A stretch of DNA of 61,718 bases from Planctomycetota bacterium. GTDB lineage: Bacteria > Planctomycetota > J058. The notes beneath the pieces were generated by a model. That model had not been told where the DNA came from. It searched no databases and was given only the letters and a program-made list of their open reading frames with translations. Every line of letters starts with the position of its first letter. Positions within the stretch are counted from its first letter, which is position 1. Shown here in pieces: positions 3,373 to 61,718 of this stretch. The translations under genes were made by a program, and so were the position numbers. Location of the stretch: assembly GCA_023954375.1 (NCBI GenBank), contig JAMLIC010000006.1, positions 210,972 to 272,689 on the forward strand, in the 5' to 3' direction.

Positions 3373-5808
3373 CTACGCCACGAGCCGGACCTCGGCCTCG
3401 AGCACGACGCCGCGCGCCTCGCGGACGCGGCGCCGCACCTCGCAGGCGAGGGCCAGGACGTCGTCGACGGTGGCGTCGCCGTCGTTGACGATGAAGTTGG
3501 CGTGCACGGGCGAGACGCGGGCGCCGCCGCGCGAGAGGCCCTTGAGGCCGCAGGCGTCGATCAGGCGGCCCGCGCTGTCGCCGGGCGGGTTCTTGAAGAA
3601 GCAGCCGGCGCTGCGCGCGTCGAGCGGCTGGATCGCGGCCTTGCGGCGCAGGGCCTCCTGGCGCGCGGCCTTGAGGGCGTCGCGGTCGCCGCGCTCGAGC
3701 TCGAGCTCGACCGCGAGCACGTAGGCGCCGTCGAGGTCGGCGCCGCGGTAGCGGAGGCCGAGCGCCGCGCGCGGGAGCCAGCGGGCGACGCCGTCGCGGC
3801 CGAGGGCGCGGACGCGCCGCACGCGGTCGCCGATCGCCCCGGCCCCGGCCGGCCCGCCGGCGTTGCCGGCCAGCGCGCCGCCGATCGTGCCCGGGATCCC
3901 GGCGAAGCGCTCGAGGCCGGCGAGGCCGTGGCGCTCGGCCAGGCGGATCAGGCCCGGGAGCGGCTCGCCCGCGGCGGCGCGCACGACGGGGCCCAGGACC
4001 TCGGCCCCGCGCAGGGCCCGGCAGGAGATCACGGCCGCGTCGACGAGCGGGCTGGCGAAGAGGACGTTCGAGCCGCCGCCGAGCGGCACGACCGGCACGC
4101 CGTGGGCCTGGAGGGCGCGCAGGACGCGCACGGCCTCGGCCTGGGTGCGCGGCTCGGCGAAGAAGCGCGCCCGCCCGCCGGCCTTGATCGTCGTGCGCGG
4201 GCCGAGCGGCTCGCCCGTGCGCACGAGGCCGGGCAGCGCCTCGAGGACCCGCGCCTCGAGCCCCTCGCCGCCGCGGCGGAAGCGGCCGCTGGCCACCTTG
4301 GCCAGCGGGGGGAGCGGCTCGTCGCTGCGGCGCGCCAGGCGCTCGAGGGCCCGGTGCGCGGCGCCGCTGATCCGGCCGGCGCCCATGAACAGGGCCACGT
4401 CGCCCTTCTGCAGCAGGCGCACGGCCGTGCCGATCAGGGCGTCGGGGTCGCCGCCGGGGACGGCCTGCGTCCCGGGTGCGCGGGCGCGCACGGCGCGGGC
4501 GAGGGCGGCCGCGGTGACCGTGCGCACGTCGTCGGGGCGATCGCGGCAGGTGTAGACGTCGGCCACGACGACGCGGTCGGCGCGGGCCAGGGCGTCGACG
4601 AAGCCGTCCCAGTGCTCGCGCGTGCGGCTGGCCTGGTGCGGCTCGAACAGCGCCACGACGCGCCGGCCCGGGTGGCGGGCGCGGGCGGCGTCGATCACGG
4701 CGCGGAGCGCCGTCGGGTGGTGGGCGTAGTCGTCGACGACGAGGACGCCGCCCGGCTCGCCGAGCACGTCGTAGCGGCGGCGGACGCCCGTGAAGCCCTC
4801 GACCGTGGCGGCGGCCTGCTCGGGGGCGACGCCCGCGCACACGGCGGCGGCGATCGCGGCCAGCGCGTTGGCGACGTTGTGGGCGCCCGGGACCGAGAGG
4901 CGGACGCGCGCGCGCGGCCGGCCGTCGAGGGCGAGCGTGAAGCGGCCGAGGCCGTCGTCGTAGGTGACGTCGCGCGCGGCGAGGCGCGCCTCGCCGCCGA
5001 CCGAGAAGGTCATGACGGTCACGTCGGGGCGGGCGTGGCGCACGGTCTCGGCCACGCGCAGCGCGGCCGGCCAGTCGGCCGAGGCGACGAGCGCGCCGCC
5101 CTCCTGCACGCCCGCGGCGAACTCGACGAAGGCAGAGACGATCTCGTCGAGGCCGCCCTGGTAGCAGTCGAGGTGGTCCTCCTCGACGTTGAGGACGACG
5201 GCGCACGCGGGCCGGTAGTGCTTGAACGAGCGGTCGTACTCGCAGGCCTCGAGCACGAGCTCCGGCCCCTGGCCGAGCGCGGCGTTGGCCGGCAGGTCCT
5301 TGGGGGCGCCGCCCACGAGCCAGCTCGGGTCGCGGCCGCAGGCGCGCAGGACGTGCGCCGTGAGCGCCGTCGTCGTCGTCTTGCCGTGGGTGCCGGCGAT
5401 CGCCACGCCGCGCCGGGCGGCGACGAGCGCGCCGAGCGCCTCGGCGTACTTGACCACCGGCACGCCGCGGCCGATCGCGGCCACGAGCTCGGGGTGGTCG
5501 GGCGGCAGCGCCGCCGTCGCGACGAACAGGTCGGCGTCGGCCGGGAGGTTCGCGGCCTCCTGCCCGTAGCGCACCTCGATCCCGGCCGCCTCGACGGCCT
5601 CCGAGAGCGGCCCGCGCGCCTGGTCGGAGCCCAGGACGCGGTGCCCCAGCCCGGCGATCAGGCGCGCCAGGCCGGAGAGGCCGGTGCCGCCGATCCCCGA
5701 GCAGAAGACGACGAGCGGGGCGTCGCCGGCCGGCCGCGCCATGCGCCCGAGCAGCGCGCGCCGACGCGACAGCGTCCCCGAGACCGCCAGGCCAGCGTCC
5801 ACGGTCAT
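3373..5808 (-). CDS. murC/murB: UDP-N-acetylmuramate--L-alanine ligase (MurC) fused in frame to UDP-N-acetylenolpyruvoylglucosamine reductase (MurB); 811 aa with no stop between the domains
   Basis: N-terminal MurC motifs (GIGGTGLSGLA, GTHGKTTTT, DDYAHHP) and C-terminal MurB motifs (GPRTTIKAGGRARFF, GGGSNVLF, SAGCFFKNP) share one open frame. The start may instead be the ATG at 5742. Confidence 0.85.
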   Translation of the reverse strand: MTVDAGLAVSGTLSRRRALLGRMARPAGDAPLVVFCSGIGGTGLSGLARLIAGLGHRVLGSDQARGPLSEAVEAAGIEVRYGQEAANLPADADLFVATAALPPDHPELVAAIGRGVPVVKYAEALGALVAARRGVAIAGTHGKTTTTALTAHVLRACGRDPSWLVGGAPKDLPANAALGQGPELVLEACEYDRSFKHYRPACAVVLNVEEDHLDCYQGGLDEIVSAFVEFAAGVQEGGALVASADWPAALRVAETVRHARPDVTVMTFSVGGEARLAARDVTYDDGLGRFTLALDGRPRARVRLSVPGAHNVANALAAIAAAVCAGVAPEQAAATVEGFTGVRRRYDVLGEPGGVLVVDDYAHHPTALRAVIDAARARHPGRRVVALFEPHQASRTREHWDGFVDALARADRVVVADVYTCRDRPDDVRTVTAAALARAVRARAPGTQAVPGGDPDALIGTAVRLLQKGDVALFMGAGRISGAAHRALERLARRSDEPLPPLAKVASGRFRRGGEGLEARVLEALPGLVRTGEPLGPRTTIKAGGRARFFAEPRTQAEAVRVLRALQAHGVPVVPLGGGSNVLFASPLVDAAVISCRALRGAEVLGPVVRAAAGEPLPGLIRLAERHGLAGLERFAGIPGTIGGALAGNAGGPAGAGAIGDRVRRVRALGRDGVARWLPRAALGLRYRGADLDGAYVLAVELELERGDRDALKAARQEALRRKAAIQPLDARSAGCFFKNPPGDSAGRLIDACGLKGLSRGGARVSPVHANFIVNDGDATVDDVLALACEVRRRVREARGVVLEAEVRLVA

Positions 5809-5909
5809 CTCCGACCGCCCCCCCGCGGAGCCGACCCGGGCGCCCCGACGGTCCGGCGGCGGTCTCCAGGGGAGTTATCGGTCGGGGTGGGGGGGTGGCC
5901 GTAGCGCGG

Positions 5910-21159: not shown

Positions 21160-24100
21160 TCAGCCCTTCACGACCCCGAGCGGCCGGATCCGCGCCACCT
21201 TCTCGGCCAGGCCGCCCTGGTGGACGACGTCGACGACCTGCGCCACGTCCTTGTAGGCCTCGGGCACCTCCTCGACGACGGTCGCGCGCGAGGCCCCCAG
21301 GACGATGATCCCGAGCGTCTCCTCGAGGCGGCGCGTGACGTTCTCGGCGCCGTGGCGGCGCTTGGCCTCGGAGCGCGAGAGGAGGCGTCCGGCCCCGTGG
21401 CAGGCCGACCCGAACGTGTCCTCGGCGCGCGCGCCGCCCTTGAGCACGAACGAGTAGCGGCCCATGTCGCCCGGAATGATCACGGGCTGCCCCAGCGCGC
21501 GGTAGGCCTCGGGCACGAGGGGGTGGCCCGGCGGCAGGGCGCGCGTGGCGCCCTTGCGGTGCAGGAGGAGGCGCTTCGTCTGGCCGTCGACGGGGTGCTC
21601 CTCGAACTTGGCGATGTTGTGGCACACGTCGTAGACGGTGCGCAGCCGCGTCCTGAAGCGGTCCTTGAACACCAGCCGGGCCCAGTGGGTCATCACCTGC
21701 CGGTTCGTAAAGGCGAAGTTGGCCGCCGACGCCATGGCGCCCAGGTAGCGCCTCGCCTCGGGGCTGTCGATCGGCGCGCAGCAGAGCTGCCGGTCGACGA
21801 GCGGGATGTCGTAGGCCGCCGAGGCCGCGAGCATGGCCGAGAGCGAGTCCTCGCACACCTGGTGGCCGAGCCCGCGCGAGCCCGAGTGGATCATGAGCGT
21901 GATCTGCCCGAGCCGCAGGCCGTAGGCCGCGGCGGTCGCCTCGTCGTGGACCTCGTCGACGACGCCGACCTCGGCGAAGTGGTTCCCCGAGCCGAGCGTC
22001 CCCAGCTGGTCGCGCCCGCGCTGCCGCGCGCGGTGGCTCACCGCCGCCGGGTCGGCCCCCGGGATCCGGCCGGTCTCCTCGACGTGGGCGCGGTCGTCGT
22101 CGGTGGCGTAGCCCTGCTCGACCGCCCAGTCGAGCCCGCGCTCGAGCACCTGCGAGAGCGTGCCGTCGTCGAGGTGCAGCTCCGGGCGCGTCGAGCCGAC
22201 GCCCGAGGGGATCGCGTCGAACAGGGCGCGCGTGAGCTCCTTGAGGCGCGGCTTCACGTCCCCGAGGTGCAGGTCGGAGGCGAGGAGGCGGACGCCGCAG
22301 TTGTGCACGACGACGCCCTCGGCGACGAAGTCGTGCGAGGGGTGGTCGACGGTGATGTCGTAGACGCGGTCGACGTCGGCGCGCGGCCGGATCGCGACGA
22401 CCTCGTCCCACACCGCGCCGGAGTCGCCGAGCCCGAAGGTCGCCTCCTCGAGCCACTCGTCGAGGCGCGGGAACCGCTCCGCCACGCGCACCTGCGCGTC
22501 CGGCTGGCCCCCTCGCCGACCGTGGATCGTTCGCTCGACGAACCGCAGGTTCACCGGCGCCGAAGCCCCGAGCGCCGCGTGGATCCGGGCCGCGGACCAC
22601 CCGTGCCGGCGGCGCAGGTCGAGGGCCTGCTCGCGCGTGGCCCGACGCTCGCCCAGCGCGGCCAGCTTGGCGCGCAGGTACCCCACGGCGGCGGCCGCCT
22701 TCCGGGTCCGGCTCGCGTTGTACTCGAAGCCGATGCGCCCCCAGAGCGCGATCAAGTCGTCCGGGGTGGACGGGAAGATCAGGCGCAGCCGGATCGACGT
22801 GCTGCCGTCCGGCGCGTCGTACTCCTCGCGCTCGGAGAGCGTGCAGGGGCGGACGCCGAAGCGCGCGGCCACCGCGCCCACCTGCTCGAGGAACCGACGC
22901 CCGCTGGCGACGTGCGGCTCGCGCTTGTTCTGGCAGAGGACCGGCGCCTGGAAGCACGTCCCCTGCTCGGGCACCGGCGTGGGGGCGCTCAGCTCCGCGC
23001 CGAAGAAGCCGGCGAGGAACAGCCGCTGCTGCCAGCGCGGCGCCTCATCGAGCCACCGGGGCAGGCCCCAGTCCTGGTCGACGCGCCGGCGGGTCGGGAG
23101 TCCCATGGCCGCGAGCAGCAGGGCCAGCCTCTTGCCCAGCGCAAGCGAGTGCTCCGTGGTCGTGAAGGCGCTCGTGCCGTACCGCGTGGCGACGGCGCAC
23201 CGGCGGGGGCGCGAGTGCACCGACGAGACCCGGAACCAGGGGCGCAGGTCCCCGCGCATCCGCTCGAGGTCCTCGGCCGCGCCGTAGGCGACCGCCTTCA
23301 GCGTCGTGCCGGTGGTGAAGATCGTGCCGTCCCCGAGCACGTAGCCGGCGACCTTCAGCAGGACGGGGAGCGCCGGATGGTCGTCCGTCAGCGGGAGGAG
23401 GTCGTCGAGGCGACGGAGCGCCTGCTCGAGTCCGTTGCCGCCGCTGCCCTTCCCGTGCTGGACCGCGACCTCGCGCACCTGGTCGCGCGAGACGATCACA
23501 CGCCCGGCGGGCGGCTCGTAGGGCACCCCCTCGAAGGGGTGCGTCGCCACGCGGTCGCCCACCACGAGGGCGCCGAGGTCCCGCATGCCGGTCGGGGTGA
23601 GGAAGGGATGGTCGTCGGTCGCGACGACCCGCCGTCCGGCGGCGGTCTCGACCTCGAACACCGGGCGGCGCGGGCGGCGCGCGAGGCCCGCCGCCACGGC
23701 GCCGGCCTGGAACTCGCGCCGGTCAAGGTCGAACACGGTCACCGGGTCGCGGACCTGCCCCTCGACGAGGTCGCGGAGCGGGCGCGTGTAGCCCAGCGCG
23801 GAGGTGACGCGGGTGTCGCCGGCGAGGCAGTTGATGTCGAAGCCGATCCCGCCCGGCGTGACCACCCCGCCTGCGTCAGGGTCGAACGCCGCCACGCCGC
23901 CGATCGGGAAGCCGTAGCCCCAGTGAATGTCCGGCATGGCGAACGAGTGGCCGACGATCCCCGGCAGCGTGGCGACGTTGGCGACCTGCTCGAGGCTACG
24001 GTCCTCGCGCAGGTCGGGGAGGAGGTCCTCGCGCGCGTAGACGATCCCGTCCACGTGCATGGCGCCCGTCTTCGGCACGCGCCAGCGGACGTCGTCGATC

Positions 24101-24228
24101 TTCTCCAGCGGCACCGGCCGCCCCTCGTAGGGCGGCGGCGCGGCGGAGGGGCCCGCGCCTCGCGCCTCGCGCTTGCGGGCCTGCTTCTTGGCCACCTGCT
24201 GGCGGCGCTTGCGGTCCTTGCGGCTCAC
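21160..24228 (-). CDS. rtcB: RNA-splicing ligase RtcB, interrupted by a 510-aa intein
   Basis: The exteins join to GFDIN-CGVRLL, the RtcB active-site motif, and other RtcB motifs are present (GSGNHF, HSGSRGLG, CHNIA). GTG start with an AAGGAGGG RBS. Confidence 0.9.
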   Translation of the reverse strand: MSRKDRKRRQQVAKKQARKREARGAGPSAAPPPYEGRPVPLEKIDDVRWRVPKTGAMHVDGIVYAREDLLPDLREDRSLEQVANVATLPGIVGHSFAMPDIHWGYGFPIGGVAAFDPDAGGVVTPGGIGFDINCLAGDTRVTSALGYTRPLRDLVEGQVRDPVTVFDLDRREFQAGAVAAGLARRPRRPVFEVETAAGRRVVATDDHPFLTPTGMRDLGALVVGDRVATHPFEGVPYEPPAGRVIVSRDQVREVAVQHGKGSGGNGLEQALRRLDDLLPLTDDHPALPVLLKVAGYVLGDGTIFTTGTTLKAVAYGAAEDLERMRGDLRPWFRVSSVHSRPRRCAVATRYGTSAFTTTEHSLALGKRLALLLAAMGLPTRRRVDQDWGLPRWLDEAPRWQQRLFLAGFFGAELSAPTPVPEQGTCFQAPVLCQNKREPHVASGRRFLEQVGAVAARFGVRPCTLSEREEYDAPDGSTSIRLRLIFPSTPDDLIALWGRIGFEYNASRTRKAAAAVGYLRAKLAALGERRATREQALDLRRRHGWSAARIHAALGASAPVNLRFVERTIHGRRGGQPDAQVRVAERFPRLDEWLEEATFGLGDSGAVWDEVVAIRPRADVDRVYDITVDHPSHDFVAEGVVVHNCGVRLLASDLHLGDVKPRLKELTRALFDAIPSGVGSTRPELHLDDGTLSQVLERGLDWAVEQGYATDDDRAHVEETGRIPGADPAAVSHRARQRGRDQLGTLGSGNHFAEVGVVDEVHDEATAAAYGLRLGQITLMIHSGSRGLGHQVCEDSLSAMLAASAAYDIPLVDRQLCCAPIDSPEARRYLGAMASAANFAFTNRQVMTHWARLVFKDRFRTRLRTVYDVCHNIAKFEEHPVDGQTKRLLLHRKGATRALPPGHPLVPEAYRALGQPVIIPGDMGRYSFVLKGGARAEDTFGSACHGAGRLLSRSEAKRRHGAENVTRRLEETLGIIVLGASRATVVEEVPEAYKDVAQVVDVVHQGGLAEKVARIRPLGVVKG
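22300..23829 (-). other. full-length intein with a LAGLIDADG homing-endonuclease domain, inserted before the catalytic Cys of RtcB
   Basis: Block A CLAGDTRV, block B TDDHPF, LAGLIDADG-like motifs VAGYVLGDG and LAGFFGAE, C-terminal VVVHN followed by the +1 Cys. Confidence 0.85.
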
Positions 24229-24286
24229 GCGCCCTCCTTGGGTGCGAACAGAAGGCTAACCTGAGGGTCCGACATCCCTGGCGCCC

Positions 24287-46628: not shown

Positions 46629-47965
46629 GCGTGACCCGCGACAACGACCCCGTCGCGTACACGCTGCGGCTCGCCGTCTGCGTGACCGCCGCGATCGCCG
46701 TGCACCTGCTGGCGGTCTTCTCCTCCAGCCAGGAGGAGGAGGCCAAGGCGGAGCAGCAGCGGATCGCCGTCGTCCTCAAGGAGACGATGACCAAGGTCAA
46801 GGAGGAGATGGAGAAGCTCCTCCAGGAGGCGCAGGCCGAGCCGCCGCCGCCCGAGCCGGAGCCCGAGCCGGAGGAGCCCGAGCCGGAGGAGCCCGAGCCG
46901 CAGCAGGCCGAGCCGCCGCCGCCCGAGCCGCCCCCGCCGGCGCCGACCGCCCCCGAGCCCATGCCCGAGGCGCCGCAGGACCTCGCGCTGGCCGACGCGG
47001 ACGTGAGCGTGCTCGAGCTCGAGCCGCCGCCGCGCCCGCGTCGGCCCGAGCCGCTGCCGCAGGTCGAGCCCGTGCTCGAGCCGCCGAAGCCGGAGCCGCC
47101 GAAGCCGGAGCCGCCGAAGCCGGAGCCGCCGAAGCCGGAGCCGCCGAAGCCGGAGCCGCCGAAGCCGGAGCCGGTCCGTCCCGAGCCGAGGCCGGAGCCG
47201 GTCCGGCAGCCGCCGCCGCCCGAGCCGGTCCGTCCCGAGCCGAGGCCCGAGCCGGTCCGTCAGCCGCCGCCGCCCGAGCCGGTCCGTCCCGAGCCGAGGC
47301 CCGAGCCGGTCCGTCAGCCGCCGCCGCCGCCCGAGCCGGTCCGTACGCCGGCGCCGCCGGTGCCGCCCGAGATCGGCTCGGAGACGGTCGCCCAGCGCGA
47401 CGCGCGCCTGCACCAGACCATGCGCGAGCTGAGCGACTTCAACGAGTTCGCCACGACGTCGCGCGACGAGGTCAAGGGCAAGATCCCGGCGATCCTCTTC
47501 ACCAACGAGGACGAGGCCGAGTGGATGGCGCTGATCGCCTACTTCGACCTCCTGCCGATCGCCTACGCCAAGAGCGACCCGAGCTACTACGTCACGATCG
47601 ACGTCGCCCGCCGGCAGATGAACCACACCCGCGACTTCGAGTTCCTGCAGCAGCGCTACGGGCGCAACGGCATGCTCGTGCGCCAGCTCGGCACCATGCC
47701 GCAGTTCGTGGCCGCCGCGCGCGCGATCATGGCGCAGTTCTCGATCGCCCCCCACGACCTCACGATCCAGTTCCTCCTGCCGCGCCCGTTCGCGGCCTAC
47801 CTGAACTGGAAGGCGCTCAAGACCTGCCACGAGCTGCGCCTCGACCCGGCGACGGTGAAGGCGTGTCGCGGGCGCCTCGTCCGCGAGGGGACGAAGTGGG
47901 TGTGGCGGGTCGACGACCTGCTGCTCGAGGACGGGCGGACAACCCGCGTGGGGAGGGGCGGATGA
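46625..47965 (+). CDS. TolA/TonB-like membrane protein: N-terminal TM, long Pro-rich periplasmic spacer, and a C-terminal ~200-aa domain unrelated to TonB_C
   Basis: TM helix LAVCVTAAIAVHLLAVF. (PPKPE)x6 and (PVRPEPRPEPVRQPPPPE)x3 repeats. C-terminal domain of unknown family. Confidence 0.6.
   Translation: MSVTRDNDPVAYTLRLAVCVTAAIAVHLLAVFSSSQEEEAKAEQQRIAVVLKETMTKVKEEMEKLLQEAQAEPPPPEPEPEPEEPEPEEPEPQQAEPPPPEPPPPAPTAPEPMPEAPQDLALADADVSVLELEPPPRPRRPEPLPQVEPVLEPPKPEPPKPEPPKPEPPKPEPPKPEPPKPEPVRPEPRPEPVRQPPPPEPVRPEPRPEPVRQPPPPEPVRPEPRPEPVRQPPPPPEPVRTPAPPVPPEIGSETVAQRDARLHQTMRELSDFNEFATTSRDEVKGKIPAILFTNEDEAEWMALIAYFDLLPIAYAKSDPSYYVTIDVARRQMNHTRDFEFLQQRYGRNGMLVRQLGTMPQFVAAARAIMAQFSIAPHDLTIQFLLPRPFAAYLNWKALKTCHELRLDPATVKACRGRLVREGTKWVWRVDDLLLEDGRTTRVGRGG
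47081..47340 (+). repeat. coding tandem repeats: six 15-bp PPKPE units then three ~54-bp units
   Basis: Direct perfect nucleotide repeats (ccgccgaagccggag x6). Confidence 0.85.
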
Positions 47966-49502: not shown

Positions 49503-49532
49503 CCCCGCGGGGACGAACGGAGTCACCCAGAC

Positions 49533-50663
49533 ATGGCCAAGGCAGTCGACATCGGCACCTGCTTCATCGTGGGGGCCCGCCTCGAGCAGGGCAAGGAGGT
49601 GTTCCAGATCGAGCGGGACGCCTTCTTCTCCATGCCGCGCGAGGACTTCGCCGAGGAGATGCTCCACGACGCGGGCGCCAAGTTCGTCATCCGCGGCAAC
49701 GAGCTCTACGTCGTCGGCGAGGACGCGCTCAAGTACTGCATGATCACCGGCAAGCAGGAGTTCTACCGCCGGCCCATGCAGAAGGGCGTCCTCAACCCGG
49801 GCGAGGAGGAGGCGATCCCGCTGCTCGAGCGCCTGATCGAGGGCATCATCGGCAAGCCCGAGCACCCGGGCGAGGTGATCGCCGCCACGATCCCCGCCGC
49901 GCCGCTCGACGCCAACCTCGACGTGACCTTCCACAAGATCGTCGTCGAGCGCTTCCTGAGGAAGCTCGGCTACGACGTGCGGATCCTCAACGAGGCGCTG
50001 GCGATCATCTACGCCGAGTGCCCGCAGGTCGAGGACAACGGCACGAAGGCGCCGTTCTCGGGCGTGGGCGTCTCCTTCGGCGCCGGCATGACGAACCTCG
50101 TCGTCTCGTGGCGCGCCAAGAAGCTGTTCGAGATCTCGGTCGCGCGCGGCGGCGACTGGATCGACCAGAGCGTCTCCAAGGTGCGCAACGTCCCCGTGGG
50201 GAAGGTGACGCACGAGAAGGAGAAGAACCTCGACCTGCGCCGCGTCGACCCGCGCAACGCCCTGCACCTGGGCCTCGAGATCTACTACGACGAGCTGATC
50301 CGGCACGTCCTGCGCGAGTTCCGGGCGCACTTCAAGACGAACCAGACGACGGTCACGAGCCCGCTCGACGTGGTCGTCGCCGGCGGGACCTCGTCGGTGC
50401 CCGGGTTCATCGACCTGTTCAAGCGCATCCTCGAGGAGGAGGGCGCGCCGATCCCGGTCAACGACGTGCGCATGGCCAAGGACCCGCTGCGCACGGTCGC
50501 CAAGGGCGCGCTGGTCGCCGCGGTCTCCATGGAGAAGAAGAAGAAGTCGGACAAGCCGGGCGCGCCGGCGGCGCCGCCGGCCCAGGCGGCGCAGGCCGCG
50601 CCGGCGCCGGCCGCGCCGCCGACGCCCAGCGCGGACGTGATCGACATCGAGGCCGGGGTCTAG
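49533..50663 (+). CDS. actin-like ATPase (ASKHA superfamily; MreB/ParM/actin-type)
   Basis: Phosphate-1 AVDIGTCFIV, phosphate-2 GVSFGAGMTNLVV, adenosine VVAGGTSSVPGF, connect-2 DPLRTVAKGAL. Ala/Pro-rich C-terminal tail. Confidence 0.7.
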   Translation: MAKAVDIGTCFIVGARLEQGKEVFQIERDAFFSMPREDFAEEMLHDAGAKFVIRGNELYVVGEDALKYCMITGKQEFYRRPMQKGVLNPGEEEAIPLLERLIEGIIGKPEHPGEVIAATIPAAPLDANLDVTFHKIVVERFLRKLGYDVRILNEALAIIYAECPQVEDNGTKAPFSGVGVSFGAGMTNLVVSWRAKKLFEISVARGGDWIDQSVSKVRNVPVGKVTHEKEKNLDLRRVDPRNALHLGLEIYYDELIRHVLREFRAHFKTNQTTVTSPLDVVVAGGTSSVPGFIDLFKRILEEEGAPIPVNDVRMAKDPLRTVAKGALVAAVSMEKKKKSDKPGAPAAPPAQAAQAAPAPAAPPTPSADVIDIEAGV

Positions 50664-54665: not shown

Positions 54666-55681
54666 GCCCGCGCGCCTGCAGCGCGGCGGCCGTCGGCGCG
54701 GCGGTCCTCGGCGCGGCGGTGGGGGCCGTCGGCCTCCTGCCGGCCACGGCGCAGGAGCGCCGGGTCGCCGACGAGCCGGCCCGGCCGAAGGAGCTCGTCA
54801 GCTTCCTCACGGGGGACCCCGACGACCTCGAGGTCGCGCCGGCCGGCCCGGCGCTCCTGCTCATGGGCGGCGGGCGCGACGTCGACCACGCCTTCGCCTG
54901 GTTCCGCGACCAGGCGCGCGGCGGCGACATCGTCGTCCTGCGCACCTCCGGCGCCGACGGCTACAACGCCTACCTCTACCAGCAGATCGGCGGCGTCGAC
55001 AGCGTCGAGACCCTCCTCGTGACCACGCGGGCGCTCGCCGACAGCCCCTGGGTGGCGCGCCGCATCGAGGAGGCCGAGGGCGTGTTCATCGCCGGCGGCG
55101 ACCAGGCGACCTACGTGCGCGCCTGGAAGGGGACGGCGCTGGAGCGGGCCCTGCACGCCGCCTGGCGGCGCGGGGCGGCGCTCGGCGGGACGAGCGCCGG
55201 CGCGGCGATCCTGGGGCAGTTCAGCTACGCGGCGCTGCACGGCTCGCTCACCTCGGGCGCGGCGCTGCGCGACCCCTTCACGCGCGACCTGACGCTCGAG
55301 CGCGAGTTCCTGCGCCTGTCGTTCCTCGAGGGGGCCGTGGTCGACACCCACTTCGGCCGGCGCGACCGCGAGGGGCGCCTGCTCGCGTTCCTCGCCCGGC
55401 TGATGGCCGACGGCTGGCACGAGCGCCCGCTGGGGATCGGCCTCGACGAGGAGACGGCCCTGGCGATCGGCCGCGGCGGCAAGGCGCGCGTGTTCGGCAA
55501 GGGCGCGGTGACGCTCTATCGCCCCCACGGCCCGCCCGCGGTGTGCGAGCCCGGGCGCGCCCTGCGCCTCGAGGGGGTCGGCGCGTGGACGCTCCGGCGC
55601 AACGACACGCTCGACCTCCCTGCGGGGCCGGGCGGTCCGCCGCCGCGGCGTGTGGCGGCCGCCGACGGCGCGGTCCGTTAG
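54662..55681 (+). CDS. secreted peptidase S51 / cyanophycinase-like protein
   Basis: GGDQATY...GTSAGAAILG Ser-nucleophile region. Signal peptide. GTG overlapping the kinase stop. Confidence 0.6.
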   Translation: MSPRACSAAAVGAAVLGAAVGAVGLLPATAQERRVADEPARPKELVSFLTGDPDDLEVAPAGPALLLMGGGRDVDHAFAWFRDQARGGDIVVLRTSGADGYNAYLYQQIGGVDSVETLLVTTRALADSPWVARRIEEAEGVFIAGGDQATYVRAWKGTALERALHAAWRRGAALGGTSAGAAILGQFSYAALHGSLTSGAALRDPFTRDLTLEREFLRLSFLEGAVVDTHFGRRDREGRLLAFLARLMADGWHERPLGIGLDEETALAIGRGGKARVFGKGAVTLYRPHGPPAVCEPGRALRLEGVGAWTLRRNDTLDLPAGPGGPPPRRVAAADGAVR

Positions 55682-57726
55682 TCCAACACGTCGCGAACGA
55701 CGCGCAGGCCGACGACCTCGAGGAGCCACGGGTGCTCCGGCGAGTAGCCGAGGCGCCGCGCGGTCCGGCACGTGGTCGGGACGACGTAGGCCGCGTCGCC
55801 GAGCACGGGTCGCCCCGCCTCCTCCATCGCGCGGCCGAACGCCTCGAACGACCAGAAGCCGCCGCGGAGGACCTGCAGGGCGTCGCCGCCCCGGGGGTCC
55901 ATGTGCTCGCTGCCCGGCGCGGGCACGAAGTCGTCATCGACCCACTCCGTCACGTTCCCGGCCATGTCGAGGCAGCCGAAGGGGGACACGTCGCCGGGCG
56001 TGGCCCCGCACGGGCGCGGCCCGTCGGTGCCGACGTTCGTCCTGTCGGCCGCGAAGTCGTTGCCCCAGGGGTAGACCAGGCCCTCGGGGCCGCGCGCGGC
56101 GAACTCCCACTCCGCGCTCGTGGGCAGGCGCCCTCCGGCCCACGCGGCGTAGGCGCGCGCGGCCTCGCGCGTCACGTGCGTCGCGGGCAGGGCCGAGTCG
56201 CCGGCAGGCCAGGCGGGAGGCGAGCGGCGCTCGGCCTTCGAGAATTGCAGCCACTGCGCGCGCGTGACCTCCGCCTTGCCGATCAAGTACCCGCGCGTGA
56301 GCTCGACGTTCGGCGCCCCGTCGGCGTAGGCCTTCGGGGTCGCCATGTAGAACCGCCCGGGGGGGACGAAGAGGAGCACCGACCCGTCCACCTCGTTGAG
56401 GTACTCGCCGTCGATGCGGGTCAGCCGCACCCGCGGCGGCGGCGCTGGCCACGCGTGGCCGTCGGCGCGTCGGCCCCAGCGCACGACCTCGAGGGGCACC
56501 TCCAGACGCTGCCCGCCGCGCTCGGCGAAGGCGGTGATCCGCCGCAGGCCGGGCTCGACGGCGCGGGCGACCAGGCGCACGGGGGGCGCGCCGGCGCGCG
56601 CCTGCGCGGGGGCGCCGCCGCCGACGATCCCCACCGTCACGGGCCCGAGGTCGTCGCCGCGGACCGCGCAGAAGACCTCGACCTCCTCGCCGAGGACCGC
56701 CTCGGGCGCGCTCACGTCGAGCTCGAACCGCCCGGCGGCGACGGCGTCGCTGACGGGCGGCGGCGGCGGGTCGCGCAACGCCAGCGCCGCCACGAGCCCG
56801 ACCGAGAGCGCCGCCGCGGGCAGGCCGGCCGCCGCGAGGGCGTGGCGCCGGCGCGCGCGCCGGCGCTGGCCGACGATCAGCTCGACCTTGCCCCCGGCCC
56901 AGGTGGGCGCCCCCCGCAGCCAGCGGTCGAGGTCGTCGCGCAGGTCGCGCGCGGTCGCGTGGCGGCGCGCCGGGTCCTTGGCCATGGCGACGCGGCACAC
57001 CGCCTCCAGCTCCGGCGGCACCTGCGGGCGGTCCTCCGACGGCCAGCGCGGCTCCTCCGTCATCACGCGGGTGAGGACGCGCATCTGATTCGTGCCCTCG
57101 AAGGGGGCCCGCCCGGAGAGGAGCGCGAAGAGGAGCGCGCCGAGGCCGTAGACGTCCGAGCGCTCGTCGCTCGAGCCGCCCGCCTGCTCGGGCGCCATGT
57201 AGGCGGGGGTGCCGACCACCTCGCCCGTGAGGGTGAGCCGGCGCCCGCCGAGCTCCCGCGCCAGGCCGAAGTCGAGGAGCACCGGCGTGTCGTCGGGCTG
57301 GAGGAGCACGTTCTCGGGCTTGATGTCGCGGTGCAGGATCCCGTGGGCGTGCACGACCGTCAGCGCGTCGGCGAGGTCGCGCACGATCCGCGCCGCGCGC
57401 GTCGCGTCGAGCGGGCCCTCGAGGAGGTGGGCGCGGAGCGAGTCGCCCTCGACGAGGTCGGTGACCAGGTAGGGCCCGCCGGCGGCGCGCCCGTAGGCGT
57501 GGACGACGAGGACGTTCTTGTGCCGGACCTGCGCCAGGAGCTGCGCCTCGCGCTCGAAGCGCTGCAAGGCGTCCTCGTCGGCGACCCCCTCCAGGATCAG
57601 CTTGAGCGCCAGGCGGCGGGGGACGTCGGGGTGCGAGACCTCGTAGACCGCGCCCATGCCGCCGCGCCCGACCTCGCGCACGACCCGGTAGGGTCCGAAG
57701 GCCGACACGCCGGGCACGGGCTTCAT
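55678..57726 (-). CDS. Ser/Thr protein kinase with a C-terminal FGE-sulfatase (SUMF1-like) domain
   Basis: Kinase motifs VGRGGMGAVY, HRDIKPEN, DFGLAR. C-terminal formylglycine-generating-enzyme-like region (WEFAARG...YPWGN...GGFWS). Confidence 0.85.
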   Translation of the reverse strand: MKPVPGVSAFGPYRVVREVGRGGMGAVYEVSHPDVPRRLALKLILEGVADEDALQRFEREAQLLAQVRHKNVLVVHAYGRAAGGPYLVTDLVEGDSLRAHLLEGPLDATRAARIVRDLADALTVVHAHGILHRDIKPENVLLQPDDTPVLLDFGLARELGGRRLTLTGEVVGTPAYMAPEQAGGSSDERSDVYGLGALLFALLSGRAPFEGTNQMRVLTRVMTEEPRWPSEDRPQVPPELEAVCRVAMAKDPARRHATARDLRDDLDRWLRGAPTWAGGKVELIVGQRRRARRRHALAAAGLPAAALSVGLVAALALRDPPPPPVSDAVAAGRFELDVSAPEAVLGEEVEVFCAVRGDDLGPVTVGIVGGGAPAQARAGAPPVRLVARAVEPGLRRITAFAERGGQRLEVPLEVVRWGRRADGHAWPAPPPRVRLTRIDGEYLNEVDGSVLLFVPPGRFYMATPKAYADGAPNVELTRGYLIGKAEVTRAQWLQFSKAERRSPPAWPAGDSALPATHVTREAARAYAAWAGGRLPTSAEWEFAARGPEGLVYPWGNDFAADRTNVGTDGPRPCGATPGDVSPFGCLDMAGNVTEWVDDDFVPAPGSEHMDPRGGDALQVLRGGFWSFEAFGRAMEEAGRPVLGDAAYVVPTTCRTARRLGYSPEHPWLLEVVGLRVVRDVLD

Positions 57727-57840
57727 GCGGGCAGGATACCTCTCGGTCCCCCGGGCGGCACGAGGTCGCCCCGGCCGTGGCGTGCAGGGGACGTCGTGGT
57801 TATCACCACGTTGCAGGATCTCTCTCCCCCCAGGGGGCCG

Positions 57841-59763
57841 ATGAACCCGTCCAACCAGTCGTTCAGGGACGACCTCGAGGCCAAGCTCGCGGCGGTCGAG
57901 CGGGTCCTCCGCGCGGCGCACCTGGAGCCGGGGCGCAGGGACGGGGCGGTGCGTCGGCTGGCCCGCCTGCTCGGGGCGTCGGCGCACGCGCACGGCCTGA
58001 GCGACGTGTGCCGGGCCGCCGACGAGGTGGAGCACGCGCCGCCCTTCGCGCTGCCCCGGGCGGCCGAGCGGCTGCTGGTCGTGCTGCGCCGGGTGGTCGC
58101 CGACCCCGCCCTGCGGCGGGCGTGCCTCCTCATCCTGAGCCAAGAGGCCGCCCGGCGGCAGGAGCTCACGCAGCACCTCGCCCGCCCGGGGCGCGAGGTG
58201 CTCGGGGTGGGGACCCTCGCCGAGGCGGAGCGGCTGCTCGCGGCCAAGGAGGTCGCGGCGCTCGTGATCGAGGTCGAGCCGGGGGCCCAGGGGGAGGGGC
58301 TGGCCCTGGTCGAGCGGCTGCGGGCGCGCCCGCGCGAGGCGCTCCTCCCGGTGATCGCGCTGTGCGCCCCCGAGGACCGCGCGGCCTGCTACACGCGCGG
58401 CGCCGACACGGCGATCGGGGCGCCGCAGGCGCCCGAGGTCGTGACGGCGGCCGTCGACGCCGCCCTGCGGCGCGCCGAGGCCACGGCGCGGGCCTGCCGC
58501 AAGGACCCGCTCACGGGGCTCCTGAACCACGCCGGGCTCGTCGAGGCGTTCGCGCGCATGAGCGTGTCCATGGCGCGCTCCGGCGACCCGCTGTCGCTCG
58601 CGGTCCTCGAGGTCGACGACGCGCTCCGCGTGCAGGAGACCTACGGGCCCCGCGCCGTCGAGGAGGCCCTCCGGCACCTCGCGGCGGTCCTCTCGGGCGT
58701 CCTGCGGCGCGACGACCTGCTCGCCAGCTGGGAGGACGACCGCCTCGTGGCCCTCCTGCCGGGGCCCGCCCACGGCGCCGTGCGGGCCCTGCAGAAGGCG
58801 GTCAAGGCGCTGCGGTCACGCCCGTTCGAGCACCGGTCGATGGTCATCCCGCTCGGCTTCTCGGCCGGCGTGGCGGAGGTCGTGCCGCCCGCCGCGCTCG
58901 ACGAGGTCGTGGCCGAGGCGGAGCGCCGGCTGTGGCTCGGGCGCGTCGGCGGGCGCGCCGGCTGCGTGCACGCCGACGCGGCGGAGCCGGCCGGCGCGCG
59001 CCCGCGCGTGCTCCTGGCCATGCAGGACGTGACGCGCGCGGCCGAGGCGGCCCACCGGCTCGAGCGCGAGGGCTTCGACGTGGTGCGCGAGGTCGACGGC
59101 GCGGCGGCGCTCAAGGCGGCGCGCCGCGACGACCTCGCCGCCTGCGTCCTCGAGGCCCGCCTCCCGGTGCGCGACGGGTTCCAGGTGCTCGAGCGCCTGC
59201 GGCGCGGCCCGGTCGCGGCGCGCCTGCCGGTGCTGCTGGTCACGGCGGCCGGCCGCGAGGCGGACGTGGCCAAGGGCTTCGAGCTCGGCGCGGACGACCA
59301 GATCGGCACCCCCTTCTCGACGACCGAGCTCGTGGTCCGCGTGCGGCGGCTCCTCAAGCGCCGCCCGCCGACGGCGCGCCTCGAGGCCGACCAGGCGGGC
59401 GGCGTCGTCGGCTCGTTCGTGGGCGACCAGCTGGTCGAGTTCATCCAGATGCTCGGGATCTCGGGCAAGACCGGCGTGGTGCGGGTGTCGTGCGACACCT
59501 TCTCGGGCGCGCTCTACATCGAGCACGGCAAGCTGGTGAGCGCGTCGACCTCGCTGGGCTCGCCGGCGCTCGAGGCCGCGTTCGAGGTGGTCCTCTCGCC
59601 GCACGGCCGCTTCGCGTTCGAGCCGGGGCTGCCGCTCGGCGTGCGCCGGGACATCGGCCTGTCGACCGACGTGTTCCTGCTCGAGGCGCTGCGGCGACGC
59701 GACGAAGCCCTACGGTTGATCGCGCCTACGACGAACGATGCCGGCCGCCGCCGTCCGGTGTGA
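57841..59763 (+). CDS. multi-domain signalling protein: receiver-like domain, degenerate GGDEF domain (GFSAG), second receiver domain and DUF4388
   Basis: DPLTGLLNHAGL...GFSAGVAE (GGDEF-like with the motif lost). REC motifs PVLLVTAAG. DUF4388 LVEFIQMLGISGKTGVVRV. The last 15 codons lie inside the repeat unit. Confidence 0.65.
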   Translation: MNPSNQSFRDDLEAKLAAVERVLRAAHLEPGRRDGAVRRLARLLGASAHAHGLSDVCRAADEVEHAPPFALPRAAERLLVVLRRVVADPALRRACLLILSQEAARRQELTQHLARPGREVLGVGTLAEAERLLAAKEVAALVIEVEPGAQGEGLALVERLRARPREALLPVIALCAPEDRAACYTRGADTAIGAPQAPEVVTAAVDAALRRAEATARACRKDPLTGLLNHAGLVEAFARMSVSMARSGDPLSLAVLEVDDALRVQETYGPRAVEEALRHLAAVLSGVLRRDDLLASWEDDRLVALLPGPAHGAVRALQKAVKALRSRPFEHRSMVIPLGFSAGVAEVVPPAALDEVVAEAERRLWLGRVGGRAGCVHADAAEPAGARPRVLLAMQDVTRAAEAAHRLEREGFDVVREVDGAAALKAARRDDLAACVLEARLPVRDGFQVLERLRRGPVAARLPVLLVTAAGREADVAKGFELGADDQIGTPFSTTELVVRVRRLLKRRPPTARLEADQAGGVVGSFVGDQLVEFIQMLGISGKTGVVRVSCDTFSGALYIEHGKLVSASTSLGSPALEAAFEVVLSPHGRFAFEPGLPLGVRRDIGLSTDVFLLEALRRRDEALRLIAPTTNDAGRRRPV

Positions 59764-60064
59764 TCGCGCCTACGACGAACGATGCCGGGCGGCGCCGTCC
59801 GTCGTAGCGCCGCGCGGGGCGGGGCGCGACGACCGCTCGGGCTCCCTCGGCGGCCAGGAGGCCGCCATCGGTCGCCTGGTGTGATCGCGCCTGCGACGAA
59901 CGATGCCGGGCGCTGCCGTTCGTCGGGGCCGACTGCGTCGGCCCCGACCGCTCAGGCTCTCTCGGCGGCCAGGAGGCCGCCTTCGGTCGCCTTCGCGCGG
60001 CATCGCCTCGGCCTCGTTCGTCTCGGCTGAGGCTCTGGCTGCGTCTCGCGCCGTGTGGTGTGCT
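59716..60064 (+). repeat. tandem array (one partial plus two full copies) of a ~120-bp hairpin-bearing repeat unit; the distal part of the last copy forms the left arm of an inverted repeat
   Basis: Units begin tgatcgcgcct(a/g)cgacgaacgatgccgg at 59716, 59760 and 59881. Each contains the cgacgaacg...cgttcgtcg stem. Confidence 0.7.
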
Positions 60065-60194
60065 CGGGGGCGCCGGGGCGTTCAGGCTGCGTGGGGCGGC
60101 GCCTGCGACGGCGTGATGAGACGCGGCCTGCGGCGCGCCGAGCGGGCGCCGCAGGCCGTGTGTGTGCGGGCGCCCCAGAGGTCCGAGTCAGCGA

Positions 60195-61276
60195 TCAGTA
60201 CGGGCCGTGGGGCTCGTCGTCGTCGAGGTCCTCGTCGCCGACGTCCTGCTCGTCGTCCTCGCGGTCTTCGACGTCCTCGCCGAGGTCCGCGTCGTCGCCG
60301 ATCTCCTCGTCGGCGGCGCCCTCGTCGCCGATGTCGCGGGCGTCGACGTCGGGGCGCTCGTCGGGGGGCGTGACCTGCTGGAGCGCGTAGGCGTAGTGCG
60401 TGGTCACGCGCTTGCCGCGGCCGTCCTCGCGGACGATGCGGGTGCCGGTGGCCTCGAGCCAGGTCAGGCGGCCGGCATCGTCGATCGCGAAGGCGTACTC
60501 GGGGGCCGGGGTGTCGCCGGTGACGTCGAAGGTCATCCGGAACTCGGCGCCGGCGTCGCCGCGGCCGACGTAGCGGACCTTGCCGGTGGGGAGGGCGCCG
60601 GTCGCGGGGACCCGGGCCTCGAAGCCGTCCTCGATGGCGTCGCCGGCGCGCAGCCGCTCCATGACCACGCGCACGGGCGCGCTCCCCTCGTTGTTGCTGC
60701 GCACGAGCCAGGCCTCGAGGCGCTGGCTCCAGCGCTCGACCATCCACGGCCCGAACCGCCGCAGGAACCAGCGGCGCGCCGGGCGGTCGCCGGCCATGTC
60801 GCGGGCGACCCGCGCGTAGAGCTGCTTGATCGTGCGCTCCTGCCCGGTCACCGCGAGCAGGCGCCACGTCGGGTCGAACTCGTAGGTCCAGGTGCGGGCG
60901 AACTCCAGCTCGCGCTGGCCGATGCGGATCGTCTGCAGGTCGTCGTCGTCGTAGGTGATGCGCGTCTCGACGTTCGGCGCGACGGCGTGCATGCGCCAGC
61001 CCGTGAGCGTCGAGCGCAGGGCGAACCCCTGCGGCCGGTCGAGCACCTCGGCCGACTCGGTCCACACGATCGTCGTCGTCTCCTCCTCGCCCTCGCGCCC
61101 GAGCGGCGCCTCGACGGTGCGCATCTCCGTGCGCGCCCGCCAGGTCTCGCCCGGCTGGAAGCGCTCGTCGATGCGGAAGGCGTCGCCCTCCTGCGCCGCG
61201 GCCCCACCGGCGCAGCAGAGCGCCAGGGTCGCGACGGAGAGGCGGGCGCGCGCGGTGATCCAACGTGAAGACATGG
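60195..61276 (-). CDS. secreted protein with a highly acidic C-terminal tail
   Basis: ATG with a GGAGAGG RBS. Signal peptide LSVATLALCCAGGAAAQE. C-terminal DEGAADEEIGDDADLGEDVEDREDDEQDVGDEDLDDDE. Confidence 0.55.
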
Positions 61277-61540
61277 GCCTCTCCTTCCCCCGCCGACCTT
61301 CGCGGGCGGCACGCTGGGCCGTGCAAGCACCGCGCCCACTCCGGCGCCGCCAGGCGAGCCCGCGTCCCGCGCCCCCGCCGCCCCGCAGGGGACACGCGCG
61401 TCCCGCGCTGACGGGTGTTCGCGCCTCCTGGCGCTCGCCGCTCGCCTGCAACGCCACGCCCCACGACGGCTCATGTCTGGACGCCCTCGGGCGCCGTCCG
61501 GTGGGCACCCCACCCGCCCGCCCCTCGACGCCCCCCCCGC

Positions 61541-61664
61541 CTTCGAGCACACCACGCGGCGCGAGGCGCAGCCAGAGCCTCAGCCGAGACGAACGAGGAC
61601 GAGGCGAGGCCGCGCGAAGGCGACCGAAGGCGGCCGCCTGGCCGCCGAGGACGCCTGAGCGGTC
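61541..61664 (-). repeat. inverted copy (~93% identical) of the 59945..60068 segment; right arm of the inverted repeat flanking the 60195..61276 gene
   Basis: The reverse complement aligns base for base with the left arm, about 116 of 124 positions identical. Confidence 0.7.
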
Positions 61665-61718
61665 GAGGGGGGCCGCCCCCCCCCCCCCCGCCCCGCCCCC
61701 CCGCCCCCCCCCCCGGGG
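61665..61718. other. poly-C/G low-complexity tract at the window end
   Basis: gggggccgcccccccccccccgccccgcccccccgccccccccccc; possibly a contig-end or assembly artefact. Confidence 0.4.

Follow-up and report, generated by a model that had tools for sequence, protein, structure and literature searches.

Palindromic repeats at gene 3' ends in a Planctomycetota lineage: a probable undescribed REP/MITE-like family that brackets a secreted-protein gene incidentally

Results

Genes and repeats at the locus

We analysed a 61,718-nt (61.7-kb) stretch of DNA of 75.6% G+C from a Planctomycetota bacterium (assembly GCA_023954375.1, contig JAMLIC010000006.1, positions 210,972 to 272,689), referred to here as the window. 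Near its right end the gene for a signalling regulator with GGDEF, response-regulator receiver and DUF4388 (PatA_N) domains (Pfam matches at 4e-15, 4e-18 and 1.5e-14, respectively) converges with a gene for a secreted-type protein (Table 1). The latter has a signal-peptide-like N-terminus, and a Pfam search of its 359-aa sequence gave no match. It is 100% identical to the NCBI protein M9894_09520 of a "Planctomycetes bacterium" metagenome-assembled genome (MAG) and has 16 further homologues at 45-62% identity. Copies of a palindromic repeat, designated units A to D, lie on both sides of this gene: A, B and C in a head-to-tail array on the end of the regulator gene, and D in inverted orientation close to the window end.

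An initial annotation, made from the sequence alone, described an inverted repeat of about 124 bp and 93% identity around a single secreted-protein gene, with about 2.5 tandem copies of a related unit beginning inside the regulator gene and encoding its last 15 codons. All of this held. When positions 59700-60090 were compared with the whole window by blastn, 59945-60066 matched 61665-61544 in inverted orientation (93.4% identity over 122 nt, E 2.8e-50), and an inverted-repeat search extended the arms to 59942-60078 and 61532-61668 (137 nt, 91% complementary, with 1453 nt between them). The secreted-protein gene is the only convincing open reading frame (ORF) between the arms. Head to tail, blastn matched 59757-59877 to 59878-59992 at 82.6% identity and 59717-59754, in unit A, to 59882-59919 at 92%, while Tandem Repeats Finder (TRF) reported a period of 44 with 2.0 copies at 59713-59801 and a period of 115 with 2.0 copies at 59757-59992 (83% matches). 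The array thus starts at position 59717 with A (44 nt), continues with B (121 nt) and ends with C (about 204 nt), which amounts to about 2.4-2.5 units. The remaining ~59 kb of the window held no further copy by blastn or by an nhmmer profile. The repeats as first described are correct and far beyond chance.

Table 1. Features of the repeat locus and genes upstream of the dispersed copies
Feature	Position	Strand	Evidence or remarks
GGDEF / response-regulator receiver / DUF4388 (PatA_N) regulator gene	57842..59763	+	Pfam; ATG at 57842
Unit A: 5' head fragment only, 44 nt, 3'-truncated, joined to B at GGTG/TGATCGCG	59717..59760	+	nhmmer positions 2-42, E 0.003; TRF period 44
Unit B: head, variant inner hairpin and invariant core, 121 nt, without 3' arm and tail	59761..59881	+	nhmmer positions 2-111, E 1.5e-17; 82.6% to C
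Unit C: full-length element	59882..60085	+	nhmmer E 8e-56
Unit C, 5' arm	59889-59918		
Unit C, variable inner hairpin (hp2)	59922-59948		
Unit C, core	59949-59997		
Unit C, invariant hairpin GGCGGCC-AGGA-GGCCGCC	59964-59981	+	inside core
Unit C, 3' arm	59998-60027		
Unit C, tail	60028-60085		
Secreted-type protein gene, 359 aa, acidic C-terminal tail, no Pfam family	60195..61274	-	ORF; convergent with regulator
Unit D: inverted copy with core, 3' arm and tail	61530..61670	-	nhmmer positions 59-198, E 7e-37; 93.4% to C over 122 nt
Terminal C/G-only tract, 52 nt: 38 C, 14 G, no A/T; runs C14, C7, C11	61667..61718	.	composition, homopolymer scan, TRF
Copy L006, upstream gene: dihydroorotate dehydrogenase family			stop TAG
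Copy L007, upstream gene: ETF-ubiquinone oxidoreductase (ETF-QO)			stop TAG
Copy L008, upstream gene: STAS protein			stop TAA
Copy L009, upstream gene: TPR / RpoA-CTD protein			stop TAG

The array is fused to the regulator reading frame. The predicted protein continues from ...RRRDEALR into LIAPTTNDAGRRRPV and then ends; its last 15 codons (59716-59760) lie inside unit A, and unit B opens with the TGA that serves as its stop codon (59761-63). Regulators of relatives end in ...RRRDESRRRTSGM, whereas the window protein ends in ...RRRDEALRLIAPTTNDAGRRRPV, the native tail having been swapped for repeat-encoded residues. This comparison indicates that the A-B-C array has overwritten about 8 native codons and supplied 15 new codons together with the stop.

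Copies in a second genome start at gene stop codons

A pattern for the core of the element, GGCGGCCAGGNGGCCGCCNTCGGTCG, was scanned against 596 Gb of species-representative genomes. It returned exactly four matches, each on a different contig of a single other MAG, Planctomycetota ACE_PLA31 (copies L006-L009). Over 130-181 nt they share 86-93% identity with unit C; the DNA that flanks them is unrelated to that of the window. The assignment of the unit to a dispersed REP/MITE-like repeat family (repetitive extragenic palindromic sequences and miniature inverted-repeat transposable elements) is supported by these four further copies from an independent assembly. They bring the known copies, fragments included, to 9, spread over 6 loci in the two assemblies.

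At 5/5 loci, including the regulator of the window, the element starts on the stop codon of the upstream gene or no more than about 6 nt after it, in the sense orientation. The upstream genes in ACE_PLA31 have high G+C at third codon positions. L007 and L008 are followed by a convergent gene, L006 by a co-directional one. A preference for TAG or TAA stops as an insertion target was considered and rejected, TAG making up about 35-40% of stops in the lineage by a crude gene count. Behind the ETF-QO copy, at L007 5940-6060 on the minus strand, the 3' end motif of the element, GGTGTGCTCGGGGGCGTCGGGGCGGG, occurs three times in tandem.

Elsewhere the searches were empty. The invariant core pattern had 0 matches in the JGI metagenomes, and a relaxed pattern of the 5' half had 3, all of which were dismissed as chance occurrences within coding DNA of unrelated contigs. 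No similar DNA was found in IMG/VR or in plasmid and phage collections. As far as the searched collections show, the family appears restricted to this Planctomycetota lineage.

The element is a long imperfect palindrome with a 3' tail

The anatomy of the element was derived from an alignment of the six long copies with RNAalifold, from a single-sequence fold of unit C and from explicit pair counts, all of which agree. The element is 185-204 nt long. An interrupted stem of 22 bp, which encloses the invariant hairpin and, where present, hp2, is 100% paired in 5/5 copies that have both arms. Between the two subfamilies (the window and L008 versus L006, L007 and L009) six pairs of this stem changed on both sides, and no pair changed on a single side. 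Across the entire predicted structure of 66 pairs, 0/500 shuffles reached the observed covariation score, and sliding the pair partners as a control lowered pairing from 95% to 42-54%. The two arms thus co-vary, so that the long hairpin is, on this comparative evidence, maintained. A conserved 55-nt tail, ending in GGTGTGCTCGGGGGCG, follows the palindrome.

Other parts of the element are less constant. The inner hairpin hp2 differs in sequence in C and L008, in L006, in B and in D and is absent from L007 and L009; it consists of unrelated palindromes at one fixed position. The local cgacgaacg/cgttcgtcg hairpin, which the initial annotation took for a conserved feature of the family, is confined to the window-type head, as the second subfamily has no local hairpin there. 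In full-length copies its 5' strand pairs instead with the distal arm (59889-59918 with 59998-60027).

These properties also bear on the idea that the element is a host-selected structured RNA of the 3' untranslated region (UTR), either cis-regulatory or stabilising or giving rise to a 3'-UTR-derived small RNA, which acts in the sense transcript and is not selfish DNA. The sense, stop-adjacent position at 5/5 loci fits such an RNA, and so do the compensatory changes that preserve the 22-bp helix, the invariant inner hairpin with its AGGA loop and the very stable fold of unit C (minimum free energy -128.6 kcal/mol, z -4.9). However, the antisense strand folds about as well (-117.4 kcal/mol, z -5.5), and the pairs of the long stem are all Watson-Crick and carry no strand signal; because of this the data are silent on whether the hairpin matters as RNA or as DNA whose arms an enzyme would recognise. 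Furthermore, relatives have no copy of the element at the orthologous site, the upstream genes are functionally unrelated, the truncated tandem units are unable to form the helix, the helices of the tail are without covariation, and no Rfam family corresponds to the element. We consider a host-selected 3'-UTR RNA unlikely.

Searches of the repeat region for known classes of RNA or protein gave nothing of relevance. Rfam 15, with E values up to 10, returned only two chance-level microRNA matches (E 6.5 and 8.8), ARAGORN found no tRNA or tmRNA, and a concatenated six-frame translation of the element reached nothing at E 0.001 in a protein database.

Truncated units share one junction

The 5' ends of the copies read TGATCGCG, TAGTCGCGG, TAGCGGCTG or TACGCGCC. 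The partial units A, B and the first one in L009 all three have complete 5' ends and differ in where they are truncated at the 3' side; each is joined to the next unit at GGTG/TGATCGCG. This junction resembles the 3' motif of the element itself, GGTGTGCTCG. Nested insertion was rejected as the source of the truncated units, the missing 3' parts not being found after unit C.

Because the truncated units share one junction and the hp2 palindromes vary at a fixed site, directional, hairpin-aware copying is hinted at. Units that are complete at the 5' end and truncated at the 3' end at a fixed junction may fit copying by a single-strand HUH, rolling-circle or template-switching process better than cut-and-paste transposition by terminal inverted repeats (TIRs). 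It is conceivable, if doubtful, that the element, as a mobile or RNA module, is orientation-specific and homes in on stop codons: it would land precisely where an ORF ends, bring its own stop and sometimes a short C-terminal tail, and perhaps be copied directionally.

Just past the tail of unit C, positions 60095-60175 contain two pieces that resemble parts of the element, one the head (GCGCCTGCGACG) and one the tail (GTGTGTGCGGGCGCC), together with a separate, nearly perfect hairpin whose arms, 60121-60136 and 60146-60161, are 94% complementary. The nhmmer profile gives no score to this stretch. It may represent an older copy that has decayed, or else the terminator native to the convergent pair.

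Unit D and the terminal tract

Unit D runs into a tract of C and G only at the window end. A possible short version of hp2, G6-CGG-C6, reaches about 61690; the 5' arm is not visible where the sequence enters the poly-C. In the rest of the window no homopolymer run exceeds 9. The initial annotation had noted the poly-C and had raised the suspicion that the right-hand copy might be an artefact tied to it. The last 52 nt do consist of C and G alone, and for the tract itself the suspicion is likely to be right: it is probably a poly-G sequencing or assembly artefact at a contig end broken inside a repeat, and would mask the 5' arm of D.

The suspicion does not carry over to the copy. Assemblies often break at repeats, and both the missing 5' arm and the homopolymer runs, unmatched elsewhere in the window, are what an artefactual D would lead one to expect. 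Against this, D is not a fold-back duplicate of C, since the two differ at 8/122 positions, and D has loop and hp2 variants of its own. It joins the unique sequence upstream of the secreted-protein gene without a break, and the family is present in an independent assembly. We therefore regard an artefactual origin of D as highly improbable. By analogy with the other copies, D probably follows a stop codon too, that of a minus-strand gene located past the end of the window. In relatives a gene of 172-173 aa lies upstream of the secreted-protein gene, where the minus-strand partner of D would be expected; a protein search for a homologue of the 173-aa gene returned none from the source MAG.

The secreted-protein gene is a resident of the locus

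The homologues of the secreted protein were traced to their own contigs and the neighbourhoods compared. In two relatives (L011 and L016) the gene converges with the same GGDEF/receiver/PatA_N regulator, the stop codons are separated by spacers of 12 nt and 7 nt, respectively, and no repeat is present. A third, L001, has the gene order of the window, namely histidine kinase, S51 peptidase, Ser/Thr kinase-FGE, regulator and secreted protein, with flanking-gene proteins at 66-76% identity to those of the window. There the spacer between the regulator and the secreted-protein gene is 254 nt and is filled by two tandem copies of an unrelated palindromic repeat of lower G+C. Taken together, these neighbourhoods indicate that the convergent pair is ancestral and that the repeats came later, and that this junction tolerates repeat insertions.

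The L001 repeat has a unit of about 89-100 nt, of the form ...TTCGCAGAGGGC...GCTCTCTGCGAA..., and is located at L001 1-101 and 1943-2133. The tandem pair ends about 7 nt from the regulator stop codon, at the same junction as the window repeats, and a third copy lies 1.9 kb off. Its predicted RNA fold has a free energy of -107 kcal/mol (z -9.4).

The initial annotation had suggested that a MITE/REP-like pair captured the secreted-protein gene, and had named as a check whether the gene is missing or differently placed in related strains. A composite or MITE-pair transposon of this kind would account for a single gene flanked by two related, inverted elements. The gene is, however, present in the relatives in the same convergent position and orientation, and because the pair is syntenic in at least three of them (L001, L011 and L016) without this repeat, we conclude that the gene was not captured. 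The left copy, moreover, belongs to an array fused to the coding end of the regulator, and no such gene is found beside the remaining four copies of the family. Capture deserves hardly any credence.

The same annotation offered an inversion- or recombination-prone cassette as an alternative, in which the inverted arms of 122-137 nt would flip the 1.47-kb segment with the secreted-protein gene. The arms are long and 91-93% identical, and homologous recombination between such arms is mechanistically possible. Local inversions do occur, the neighbouring kinase gene being inverted relative to L001. That gene has no flanking inverted repeat, however; no invertase or recombinase gene lies nearby; and the orientation of the secreted-protein gene is the same in relatives that are without the repeats. 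In addition, the 257 nt upstream of the gene, in which no promoter was detected, are the expected promoter region and lie inside the bracket, so that inversion would probably not switch expression. An invertible cassette is thus quite improbable.

The inverted neighbour is a Ser/Thr kinase-FGE-sulfatase gene (window 55678-57728, minus strand; L001 4121-6115). In L001 the histidine kinase, S51 peptidase, kinase and regulator genes are all co-directional, whereas in the window the kinase gene alone is flipped. Its stop codon overlaps that of the S51 gene (TTAG at 55678-55681), and no notable inverted repeat was found to flank it.

Other features of the window

Elsewhere in the window we noted an RtcB RNA ligase ORF with an intein splicing domain (21160-24255, minus strand; Pfam RtcB 1.7e-160, Intein_splicing 3e-12) and an apparent MurC-MurB fusion ORF with Mur ligase domains, FAD_binding_4 and MurB_C (3373-5874, minus strand). 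An ORF at 49503-50663 on the plus strand matched the Volactin family at 2.7e-70. Finally, in-frame tandem repeats rich in proline and glutamate occupy 46830-47365 within an ORF without a Pfam match (periods 15, 27, 54 and 81, with up to 100% matches over 96 nt).

Discussion

Based on the results presented here, we propose, with a probability of roughly 0.7, that the repeats belong to an undescribed family of non-coding REP/REPIN/MITE-like palindromic elements of about 190-200 nt at gene 3' ends, and that the bracket around the secreted-protein gene is incidental. The bracket would be incidental because one array follows a plus-strand gene and one element follows a minus-strand gene: the A-B-C array behind the regulator, together with D behind its own minus-strand partner, would produce inverted arms around whatever lay between. 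The element would spread as non-autonomous mobile DNA by means of an enzyme encoded elsewhere in the genome. It would land at a stop codon, or carry one, in a single orientation relative to the upstream gene, and would then be co-transcribed into the 3' UTR. Its very stable hairpin, about equally so on either strand, may there act as a barrier to 3' exonucleases or read-through, or as a stabiliser, for the convergent genes to both sides, as has been proposed for REP and ERIC-type elements.

Several observations weigh against this proposal. Only 9 copies or fragments are known, with a single cluster in 61.7 kb, and mobility is read from their distribution. No transposase is encoded among the 30 ORFs of the window or among the neighbours of the other copies, which are ordinary chromosomal genes. 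No consistent short direct repeat marks a target-site duplication at the element boundaries, of which the 3' one is fuzzy. A strict sense orientation and 3'-truncated tandem units are atypical of symmetric TIR transposition. The GTAG/CGTC tag of REPs, a GGGGWSAS TIR motif and attC core sites were searched for, and none is consistently present; CGTC follows the invariant hairpin in two copies only, and the sole GTAG lies inside the variant hp2 of unit B. The predicted tail hairpin has no covariation support and is no better than shuffled or slid controls, and a scan of 59500-61718 gave 0 terminator-like sites, with no T run after any hairpin.

Most REPs are found less than 20 bp away from an ORF 3' end, where the neighbouring genes converge or run in the same direction, and the stop codon is often contributed by the REP terminus itself (PMC3733652). 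REPs may stand alone, pair up in inverted orientation to form larger hairpins, or cluster, and are thought to be transcribed and to affect the fate of the mRNA (PMC3733652). Furthermore, repeats linked to tyrosine transposases have been reported in the planctomycete R. baltica (PMC3733652). The element described here resembles the REP/BIME/REPIN class in being extragenic and hairpin-forming, in lying a few bases from a stop codon and sometimes supplying the stop or C-terminal residues, in occurring singly, as an inverted pair and in a cluster, and in belonging to a lineage-specific family (PMC3733652).

In contrast, a REP measures 20-40 nt and a REPIN about 100 nt, whereas the element is about 190-200 nt long. 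Its 22-bp stem is interrupted, the inner domain is three-way and the tail is asymmetric. Neither its 5' junction nor the flanks of its invariant hairpin carry the GTAG/CGTC tag in any consistent way. All copies take one orientation to the upstream gene, and no gene for a RAYT (REP-associated tyrosine transposase) was found among the window ORFs or near the other copies.

By analogy of size and shape, the element seems nearer to long palindromic MITE-like repeats such as ERIC, Correia and YPAL. These are non-coding imperfect palindromes of 100-170 bp with TIR-like arms, which are co-transcribed and proposed to alter mRNA stability. When set apart from them by description, not by direct comparison, the present element differs in its extra 55-nt tail outside the palindrome, in its strict stop-codon position and orientation, and in that no TA or other target duplication was recognised. 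It is small, non-coding and present in multiple dispersed copies, as are MITEs (50-500 bp). Its arms co-vary over 22 paired bases, yet they are not strictly terminal, since the conserved tail follows the 3' arm.

A likeness to attC sites and Xer/dif modules was also considered. These too are imperfect palindromes right after a stop codon, and a single gene can end up between two such sites. Unlike them, the element shows by inspection no R''/R' core sites (RYYYAAC / GTTRRRY), and neither an integrase or Xer context nor a cassette array surrounds it. It is preceded by housekeeping genes in conserved synteny.

The analysis corrects the view of this locus as a cassette: two independent gene-end repeats explain the apparent bracket, and there is no evidence for a mobile or invertible secreted-protein gene. 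At the regulator, the repeat family is seen rewriting the C-terminus and the stop codon of a signalling protein. Were the element indeed to home to stop codons, it would be a repeat that targets gene ends and rewrites protein C-termini, with a terminator-like hairpin built in.

The family, which appears undescribed, adds a large structured REP/MITE-like element to the sparse knowledge of repeats in high-GC Planctomycetota. In these MAGs its strict stop-codon position and orientation could help to find where genes end and where assemblies break. Should the rule of position and orientation apply across whole genomes, the family would lend itself well to the question of how palindromic repeats select the ends of genes.

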